Below are positions 18,101 through 19,067 of a DNA stretch of 64,000 nucleotides, piece after piece. The translations under genes were made by a program, and so were the position numbers. The notes beneath the pieces are model-generated. The model was given only the letters and a program-made list of their open reading frames with translations, ran no database searches and had not been told where the DNA came from. The stretch covers positions 80,017 to 144,016 of the forward strand of contig MU053136.1 in the NCBI GenBank assembly GCA_013239625.1, written 5' to 3'. Source of the DNA: Lama guanicoe (taxonomy: Eukaryota). Positions within the stretch are counted from its first letter, which is position 1, and each line of letters begins with the position of its first letter.

Positions 18101-19067
18101 GATACAATGGGGCAGTGGGAACATCATTACAAAAATAGCCCCCCAAAACTTCCCCATCACAACCAACCTGCCAACCAGCCTGCCTTCATCCCAGTCCATA
18201 TACCCTGTTTTCCATGTCTCTCCCTGCATTCCTGGGCTTAAATTTACAAGTGTGTGTTCCTTCCTCACCAGACGCTGGTCACTCTGTGTCACTATGCCAC
18301 TTCAAGGGACCCTGCCCAGTTCCCAGAGCCAAATTCTTTCCGTCCAGCTCGCTGGCTGGAGAAGGGGACAGCCCCTCATCCATTTGCATCTCTCCCCTTT
18401 GGCTTTGGCAAGCGCAGCTGCATGGGGAGACGCCTGGCAGAGCTTGAGCTACAAATGGCTTTGGCCCAGGTGAGTGATCTAGATCTTCTACCTTCCCCAC
18501 AAGGGAGAGCTCTGAAGGCATGAGCTCCTCTCCTGATAAGCCTAGGAAAACATACAAGACTTGGGAGACGTAATCCTCTGACATATGTCAGTCCCATCAC
18601 AGGCCTGGAAGGTGAGCGAGGGTATTTGGACTATCTTTCTCCCCACAGTAATCCCTTACCCTCACTAACCAAGACTTGCCTACTAGCCCCAGGTGCCATT
18701 CCAACATTGACTTTCCTATCACTGATAATGCCTGTTATCAATCAGGCCCAGCATTGTAGACCCCTCCATAATGATAGCCTTCTTCCTCCCTTTTTAGACA
18801 GATTTTTTTAATTATTATTTTTTTATTTGTGGGGGGTAATCAGGTTTTTATTTATTGTTTAATAGACGTACTGTGGATTGAGCCCAGGTACTGTGGAGTG
18901 CATGCTAGGCGTGCACTCTGCCACTGAGCTATACCCTCCCCATTTCTTTCCAGATCTTGATCCACTTTGAGGTGCAGCCTGAGCCAGGTGCTGCCCCAGT
19001 CAAACCCATGACCCGGACTGTCCTGGTACCTGAGAGGAGCATCAACCTACAGTTTGTGGACAGATAG
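15102..19067 (+). CDS. CYP27B1: 25-hydroxyvitamin D 1-alpha-hydroxylase, mitochondrial P450, 9 exons, 508 aa
   Basis: Exons 15102-15296, 15906-16096, 16587-16789, 16871-17071, 17155-17327, 17534-17706, 17901-17979, 18272-18469, 18954-19067 (1527 nt). I-helix AGVDT, EVLR, heme motif [10 protein letters not shown]. Candidate polyA ATTAAA at 19838-19843. Confidence 0.98.
18803..18941 (-). mobile_element. tRNA-derived SINE (Vic-1-like) abutting the CYP27B1 exon 9 acceptor
   Basis: Minus strand GGGGAGGGTATAGCTCAGTGGCAGAGTGCACGCCTAGCATGCAC.. with A-rich tail; same family as 9033-9161. Confidence 0.85.

Follow-up and report, generated by a model that had tools for sequence, protein, structure and literature searches.

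Probable use of a camelid SINE for the branch point and part of the pyrimidine tract of the last CYP27B1 acceptor in Lama guanicoe

In a stretch of 64,000 nucleotides (nt) from Lama guanicoe (assembly GCA_013239625.1, contig MU053136.1, positions 80,017 to 144,016 of the forward strand; hereafter the window), we identified a short interspersed nuclear element (SINE) lying antisense in the last intron of CYP27B1, the gene for 1-alpha-hydroxylase, and ending just before the final exon. As a whole, the arrangement is probably best explained by the insertion of a camelid SINE derived from transfer RNA (tRNA), about 140 nt long and resembling vic-1, into the 3' splice-site region of this intron. 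The insertion would have parted the last 12 nt of the acceptor (ATTTCTTTCCAG) from the original pyrimidine tract and branch region, which would now lie at least 150 nt upstream, while the normal acceptor AG at 18952-53 would have remained in productive use. In its antisense head, the SINE would supply a branch-like CACUGAG (A18927, in the antisense A box) and, after it, the pyrimidine-rich CUAUACCCUCCCC. Together with the 12 nt that remain, this head would place the branch 26 nt from the AG with no AG between. The former pyrimidine tract and the TAG and CAG behind it (18778-18801) would be left as an acceptor-like decoy, the use of which would give transcripts that lack the normal tail and are immune to nonsense-mediated decay (NMD). 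The coordinates of the features are collected in Table 1.

The nine exons of CYP27B1, when joined, give 1527 nt and 508 aa without an internal stop, a full-length P450 frame orthologous to mammalian CYP27B1. Over the 508 aa, the model is 99.5-99.6% identical to alpaca models, 96.4% to the dromedary record and 91.7% to the cetacean protein. Judged by these identities, the protein is camelid, with the New World forms closest among the proteins compared. The last base of exon 8 is 18469 (..GCCCAG, then gtgagt at 18470). Exon 9, preceded by ..tttctttccAG, begins at 18954 and codes for the final 37 residues, with its stop at 19065-67. The features of a U2-type GT-AG intron are all present at 18953|18954, including the gtgagt donor at 18470, the CAG at 18951-53, a pyrimidine tract and a frame that is kept across the junction.

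A search of the animal's own 2.05-Gb genome gave 1878 first-look candidates for the SINE, and 40 of the 40 candidates that were scored matched it with E values of 2.2e-22 or lower. The 39 scored copies other than the window copy are 77-84% identical and are spread over many contigs. Among 29 fetched copies, 19 have a BLAST alignment that begins precisely at 18941, where the head GGGGAGGGTATAGCTCAGTGG ends, and this leaves 12 nt (18942-18953) to exon 9. A multiple alignment revealed the layout of the family, consisting of the head GGGG(G)AGGGTATAGCTCAGTGG, tRNA-like A and B box motifs, a region running from ATAAATAAA to CCTAATTACC, and an A-rich tail. The A and B box-like motifs TAGCTCAGTGG and GGGCTCAATCC, common to the family, are visible in the window copy, and its A-rich tail, which is interrupted, occupies 18802 to ~18830 on the plus strand. 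No tRNA was called by ARAGORN on the window or by Rfam on 18500-19100; two weak Rfam matches (E 0.5-0.9) were dismissed as chance. The text of SINEBase, which cites Lin et al. 2001, lists "vic-1 in camels" as a simple tRNA-derived SINE (PMC3531059). The name vic-1 is used here as a label only, not matched to the published consensus.

The window copy differs from the majority base of the family in 11 of 105 well-supported columns (10.5%) and has eight indel columns, and the 29 other copies differ from the majority by 1.9 to 12.1%. On the strength of this 10.5% divergence the insertion is old. At mammalian neutral rates, the copy would be tens of millions of years old. It is probably common to all camelids and presumably fixed. 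Within the copy, CCACAGTAC is present twice about 25 nt apart at 18876-18900 (..GCACTCCACAGTACCTGGGCTCAATCCACAGTACGTC..), and, compared with 28 of 29 aligned copies, an insertion of 4 nt is present in the same interval, where the remaining copy has one of 2 nt. At 18895-18921, immediately before the candidate branch point, the part of the SINE that resembles an anticodon arm is predicted to fold into a 13-bp hairpin; the fold of 18740-18990 (251 nt) was not more stable than those of shuffled sequences (z = -1.18). A second copy of the family is located at ~57620-57745 on the minus strand, with a slightly degenerate head GGATATAGCTTAGTGG and a tail region ATAAATAAA..CTAATTACC.

Of the final 152 nt of intron 8, the SINE makes up all except 12, and the current 3' splice site of exon 9 is composed of cacTGAGctataccctcccc from the SINE and atttctttccAG from outside it. 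Acceptor strength was judged by pyrimidine counts across the gene's own eight acceptors. At -20..-4 the exon 9 acceptor has 16/17 pyrimidines, compared with 12-14/17 in the seven others, and about half of its pyrimidine tract is likely derived from the SINE. Ten AG dinucleotides are found within 18775-18951, the last of them at 18927-28. According to the AG-exclusion rule, an AG that lies more than ~8-12 nt beyond the branch point serves as the 3' splice site, and the usual distance from a branch point to the AG downstream is 19-37 nt (PMC7969005). Based on this rule and the position of the last AG, the branch point serving AG 18952-53 is expected at about 18915-18940. Seven A residues are present in 18904-18942, all of them SINE sequence except A18942. 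Furthermore, a scan of the 12-50 nt upstream of exon 9 gives a single TnA motif, CTGAG, whose A18927 stands 26 nt from the last intron base, and CTGAT or CTGAC occurs 20-26 nt upstream of the acceptors of CYP27B1 introns 2, 3, and 5. The positions of these motifs make it very probable that the branch point of exon 9 lies inside the SINE, with A18927 as the best single guess, for which we would put the chance somewhat better than even.

The sense form of the branch-like motif, GCTCAGTGG, is intact in 22 of the 29 family copies; GGGTATAGCTCAGTGG, a longer word of the head, is intact in 15. The head of the window copy has the commonest form in the family (the alignment was judged by eye, uncounted), and adaptive changes thus seem unnecessary. 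In antisense, this head would then constitute a ready-made module of branch point and pyrimidine tract in which only the AG is missing. The original prediction for this DNA had described an antisense SINE ending at 18941, 12 nt before exon 9, and had proposed that the branch point and part of the pyrimidine tract derive from it. The 40/40 matches of the genome search and the 19/29 alignment starts put the identity of the element far beyond chance, and the positions of the AGs, together with CTGAG as the only TnA motif, favor the proposed origin of the signals. The end of exon 8 at 18469, the start of exon 9 at 18954, the AG at 18800-01, and A18927 were likewise found where they had been placed.

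All of the five camelid protein models seen (alpaca X2 and X3, Bactrian X3, wild Bactrian, and dromedary) end with the canonical exon 9 (...FVDR), and we infer that the canonical acceptor (AG 18952-53) is the dominant one. Compared with the whale and hippo proteins, 36 of the 37 residues of exon 9 are identical, the one change being K for R, whereas ~8.9 replacement changes would be expected at the drift rate of the SINE (rough Poisson P(<=1) = 0.0014). By this comparison exon 9 appears to have been kept under selection since the SINE inserted, and such constraint would require in-frame splicing at 18954. Databases were queried with a 52-aa open frame that includes 15 SINE-coded residues together with exon 9. 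In total, 76 proteins matched, all with PF00067, and the named ones are nearly all CYP27B1. Splicing to an AG at 18907-08 would lengthen exon 9 by 45 nt, keeping the frame with no stop and adding 15 SINE-coded residues. The pyrimidine tract before it is poor (7/15), and the extension was present in 0 of the 76 database matches, all of which cover just 38 real residues. Degenerate patterns for exon 9 gave no matches in metagenome contigs (two scans) or in prokaryote genome contigs (one scan).

Table 1. Features of CYP27B1 and its last acceptor region (positions in the window)
Feature	Position	Strand	Basis or remarks
CYP27B1 coding region	15102..19067	+	tblastn with 508-aa cetacean CYP27B1 (P0005) and GT/AG inspection
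CYP27B1 exons 1-5	15102-15296, 15906-16096, 16587-16789, 16871-17071, 17155-17327	+	
CYP27B1 exons 6-9 (coding)	17534-17706, 17901-17979, 18272-18469, 18954-19067	+	
Intron 8	18470..18953	+	484 nt, GT..AG, phase 0
Candidate branch points of upstream site	18767..18775	+	ATAAT (A18771), ATGAT (A18774); putative, from TnA scan
Stranded upstream acceptor-like site	18778..18801	+	Unbroken pyrimidine tract, then TAG (18796-97) and CAG (18800-01)
Antisense tRNA-derived SINE (vic-1-like camelid family)	18802..18941	-	Genome search and multiple alignment
Most likely branch point CTGAG, A18927	18924..18928	+	Antisense of SINE A box (GCTCAGTGG); TnA scan
Pyrimidine tract and acceptor CAG of exon 9	18929..18953	+	18929-18941 SINE head antisense CTATACCCTCCCC; 18942-18953 non-SINE ATTTCTTTCCAG
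Last exon	18954..19860	+	37 codons and stop (to 19067), then 3' untranslated region to putative ATTAAA poly(A) signal at 19838-43, taken from sequence alone

On the far side of the SINE, the pyrimidine tract at 18778-18795 has 17/17 pyrimidines before the TAG at 18796-97, which is the best of 11 sites compared in the gene. A18771 and A18774 are located 26 and 23 nt before AG 18796-97, and TnA motifs are found 23-30 nt upstream of the two AGs. Use of the TAG, which the original prediction had overlooked, would add 156 nt in frame and give 13 residues followed by a TAA stop. Use of the CAG at 18800-01 would add 152 nt and shift the frame, giving 41 residues before TGA 18925-27 inside the SINE; the added 152 nt, the shift of frame and a stop inside the SINE had been predicted. 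Transcripts with a stop codon in the last exon are expected to escape NMD, and since the stops of both products lie in the last exon, both should escape; the earlier argument to this effect is sound textbook reasoning. The SINE tail has additional AGs that make weaker candidates, among them TAG 18864-65, which follows a U-rich stretch. When the 41-residue SINE-coded tail was searched against proteins of 73-2000 aa (5.8 billion clusters), three word-sharing candidates were obtained, none of them significant; this search is a weak one, as isoforms may be merged into 90% clusters. Nothing seen suggests that the upstream site takes a large share of the splicing.

Several points weigh against a SINE-built acceptor that serves exon 9 undisturbed. 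CTGAG has a G, not a pyrimidine, after the branch A. The gene models are partly homology-driven and would favor the canonical site anyway, so that they are moderate evidence, and the neutral yardstick used for selection on exon 9 (10.5%, from a majority consensus of mixed subfamilies) is rough. In addition, the upstream decoy, having a 17/17 tract and two plausible branch points, should compete if judged on sequence alone. It may lose through exon 9's own enhancers and through the short, interrupted T-runs of the SINE tail (two runs of seven), by analogy with the dog merle insertion discussed below.

The original prediction went further than the SINE-derived signals in reading the AG at 18800-01 as a twin of the true acceptor, copied (CAG|ATCTT) within a target-site duplication (TSD) of ~17 nt and used enough to lower the amount of active 1-alpha-hydroxylase. 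The proposed copies, AAGATCTGGAAAGAAAT and AAAATCTGTCTAAAAAG (SINE-sense), are identical at 11 of 17 positions. The endonuclease of L1 prefers TT|AAAA, and a 17-nt TSD would start at TC|AAGA, nearer to this preference than the GG|AAAG of a shorter alternative. Its length falls within the 11-22 nt of the clearly flanked family copies, and at 10.5% drift per copy about four mismatches in 17 would be expected, with which the six seen are still compatible. A single ancestral tract CCTTCTTCCTCC with its TSD would also have been a textbook acceptor, whereas the ancestor under the shorter alternative would have had two AGs 12-16 nt before the true one. TSDs were scored as the best gapless match between the 5' flank, with its anchor no more than 3 nt from the head, and the sequence after the tail, in 29 family copies. 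True flank pairs had a median score of 12, with 22 of 29 scoring at least 9, and mismatched flank pairs, serving as the null, had a mean of 6.27 (standard deviation 2.24). The 17-nt alignment, which includes CAG|AT, scores 5 and so stays below the null mean and far from the true-pair median. Both flanks are of low complexity and acceptor-like, and a resemblance between them is therefore expected. By this flank-pair scoring against null pairs, no TSD above chance was found for the window copy, for which the best anchored score is 6 (AAAGAAAT against AAAAAAAT, 7/8), a value reached by 62% of the null pairs. We regard the origin of the upstream AG by duplication as possible, at somewhat less than an even chance.

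That this AG is also used to an appreciable extent would fit the 17/17 pyrimidines of the decoy and its branch candidates at 23-26 nt, and the merle insertion is described as having exactly this architecture, with a 15-bp TSD that holds the original acceptor (PMC7349775). Against such use, the SINE-coded tail is matched by no protein (weak evidence), the normal site is found in 5/5 camelid models, and exon 9 is clearly constrained. A reduction of active 1-alpha-hydroxylase is thus unsupported, given the five canonical models and the 36/37 identity to whale and hippo. Of the original interpretation, the SINE-derived acceptor signals are likely, the duplicated acceptor is somewhat less likely than not, and the reduced enzyme lacks support; duplication and measurable use taken together seem unlikely to us.

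An insertion with a short TSD, or none, is a somewhat less unlikely alternative, although we would still not expect it to be the answer, and a part of the probability falls to neither version. In that case the landing site of the SINE would have been flanked by the ancestral branch region (near TTTTTAGACAG) and the final 12 nt of intron 8. The upstream TAG and CAG would date from the ancestor, in which they stood too near the branch point for use, and the ancestral intron would read ..TTTTTAGACAGATTTCTTTCCAG|ATC. The 7/8 match of AAAGAAAT and AAAAAAAT calls for fewer mismatches, and reconstruction of the empty site would put the A at 18796 at a distance of 17 nt from the acceptor. A clear TSD is also often missing in this family, with no TSD scoring above 7 in 7 of the 29 other copies. 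However, an 8-mer match in A-rich sequence is at null level, and the ancestral pyrimidine tract would be long and located upstream, not downstream, of the branch point. Two AGs in the exclusion zone would also be unusual for a constitutive acceptor conserved across mammals. Whichever version of the TSD is true, the SINE would now supply the branch region.

This last point would fail if the branch point were outside the SINE, at A18942 (11 nt before the last intron base) or at the distant A18771 or A18774, and this we consider improbable. A18942 does exist as the first base after the SINE, the upstream ATAAT and ATGAT are reasonable motifs, and distant branch points are documented in other genes (PMC7969005). 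However, A18942 has a C at -2 and is nearer to the AG than the usual 19-37 nt (PMC7969005), and a branch at A18771 or A18774 would have to skip nine AGs beyond the adjacent one at 18776, two of them behind a perfect pyrimidine tract.

The closest known system is the dog merle allele, where an antisense tRNA-derived SINEC_Cf is located where intron 10 meets exon 11 of PMEL (SILV) (PMC7349775), 9 bp from the acceptor (PMC3976383). The 15-bp TSD of that insertion holds the original acceptor, and a short tail is described as giving normal splicing and a long tail as leading to use of a cryptic site (PMC7349775). As in merle, the CYP27B1 insertion is an antisense tRNA-derived SINE within ~9-15 nt of an acceptor (its 12 nt being inside a merle-type distance of <= ~15 nt), with the original acceptor downstream of its head and cryptic acceptors available upstream, on its poly(T) side. 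The short, interrupted tail contains two 7-T runs and is comparable to the short-tailed merle alleles that are spliced at the original site. Merle, in contrast, is young and polymorphic and has a clear 15-bp TSD and a visible phenotype, whereas the CYP27B1 copy is ~10% diverged, has no TSD above chance and is located at the last acceptor of an endocrine P450 gene. Splicing in merle was measured, while that of CYP27B1 is predicted.

Two other dog insertions provide a comparison for the separation of acceptor and branch point. In FAM161A (c.1758-15ins), a SINE 15 nt upstream of an acceptor causes exon skipping and, with it, retinal atrophy, the putative branch point having been moved from 76 bp to more than 300 bp away, and in HCRTR2 (Doberman narcolepsy) a SINE is found 35 bp upstream of the acceptor (PMC3976383). 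As in CYP27B1, the SINE parts the acceptor from the branch point. Those insertions break splicing, whereas exon 9 of CYP27B1 is kept in all models and is constrained, which implies that here the SINE itself rescued the acceptor. The CYP27B1 SINE is apparently an ancient, fixed, and harmless counterpart of the dog merle, FAM161A, and HCRTR2 insertions.

Zhang, Romanish and Mager (2011) describe a zone of SINE underrepresentation extending 100 bp from exons and consider it very likely that an insertion closer than 20 bp to an acceptor does harm; of the full-length AluY elements within 20 bp of exons, only 10% sit at acceptors (PMC3088655, Table 1). The CYP27B1 SINE is a rare survivor inside this zone. 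Their study differs in being statistical and in covering human and mouse, and its account of these zones names no branch-point donation. SINEs are described as able to supply new branch points, a URA motif occurring about every 30 nt (PMC7969005), and the poly(T) of antisense Alu elements as acting as a pyrimidine tract (PMC7349775). The usual outcome of splice signals supplied by transposable elements (TEs), as in Alu exonization or the branch motifs of MIR and Alu, is a new cryptic exon, whereas exon 9 of CYP27B1 is old, conserved, and constitutive. Among the papers listed in a literature search, with subscription journals outside its coverage, none concerns the CYP27B1 intron 8 acceptor or its SINE by title or abstract.

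If the branch point is confirmed in the SINE, CYP27B1 would be a clean natural case of a TE insertion tolerated despite being of the most hazardous kind: antisense, within 20 nt of an acceptor, and in an endocrine gene with a single copy. The antisense A box and the pyrimidine-rich head would account for this tolerance by replacing the displaced signals, and this would help explain which of the rare acceptor-near SINEs survive selection. Alpacas and llamas are prone to rickets, for which a review blames reliance on vitamin D synthesis in the skin (PMC7569877). One could imagine that the upstream site and cryptic acceptors in the SINE tail take a sizeable, perhaps regulated, share of CYP27B1 pre-mRNA in the camelid kidney, lowering 1-alpha-hydroxylase per transcript and adding to this proneness. 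Stable last-exon transcripts without the C-terminal 37 residues would then be formed, as a built-in handicap relative to other mammals. We consider this very improbable; a link between the SINE and camelid vitamin D physiology is speculation and would need measurable use of the upstream sites.

Elsewhere in CYP27B1, introns 3 and 4, which surround exon 4 (16871-17071; region 16790-17154), are just 81 and 83 nt long. Exon 4 is skipped in frame in the alpaca X2, alpaca X3, and Bactrian X3 isoforms (..FGLE then AQHHVE.., with the loss of 67 residues). Intron 3 is open in frame over 27 codons, and its retention would therefore also keep the frame. In exon 5 (~17205-17215), the model has an E-to-K change relative to the KPEEDRG of all five camelid records, representing either a variant or a species difference. 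Two METTL1 proteins oddly share a 90% cluster with the cetacean CYP27B1. METTL1 itself, a tRNA (guanine-N7)-methyltransferase, is the upstream neighbor: an open frame at 13451-13645 on the plus strand matches its C-terminus, and METTL1 accordingly ends ~1.5 kb before CYP27B1 begins, with both genes in the same orientation.

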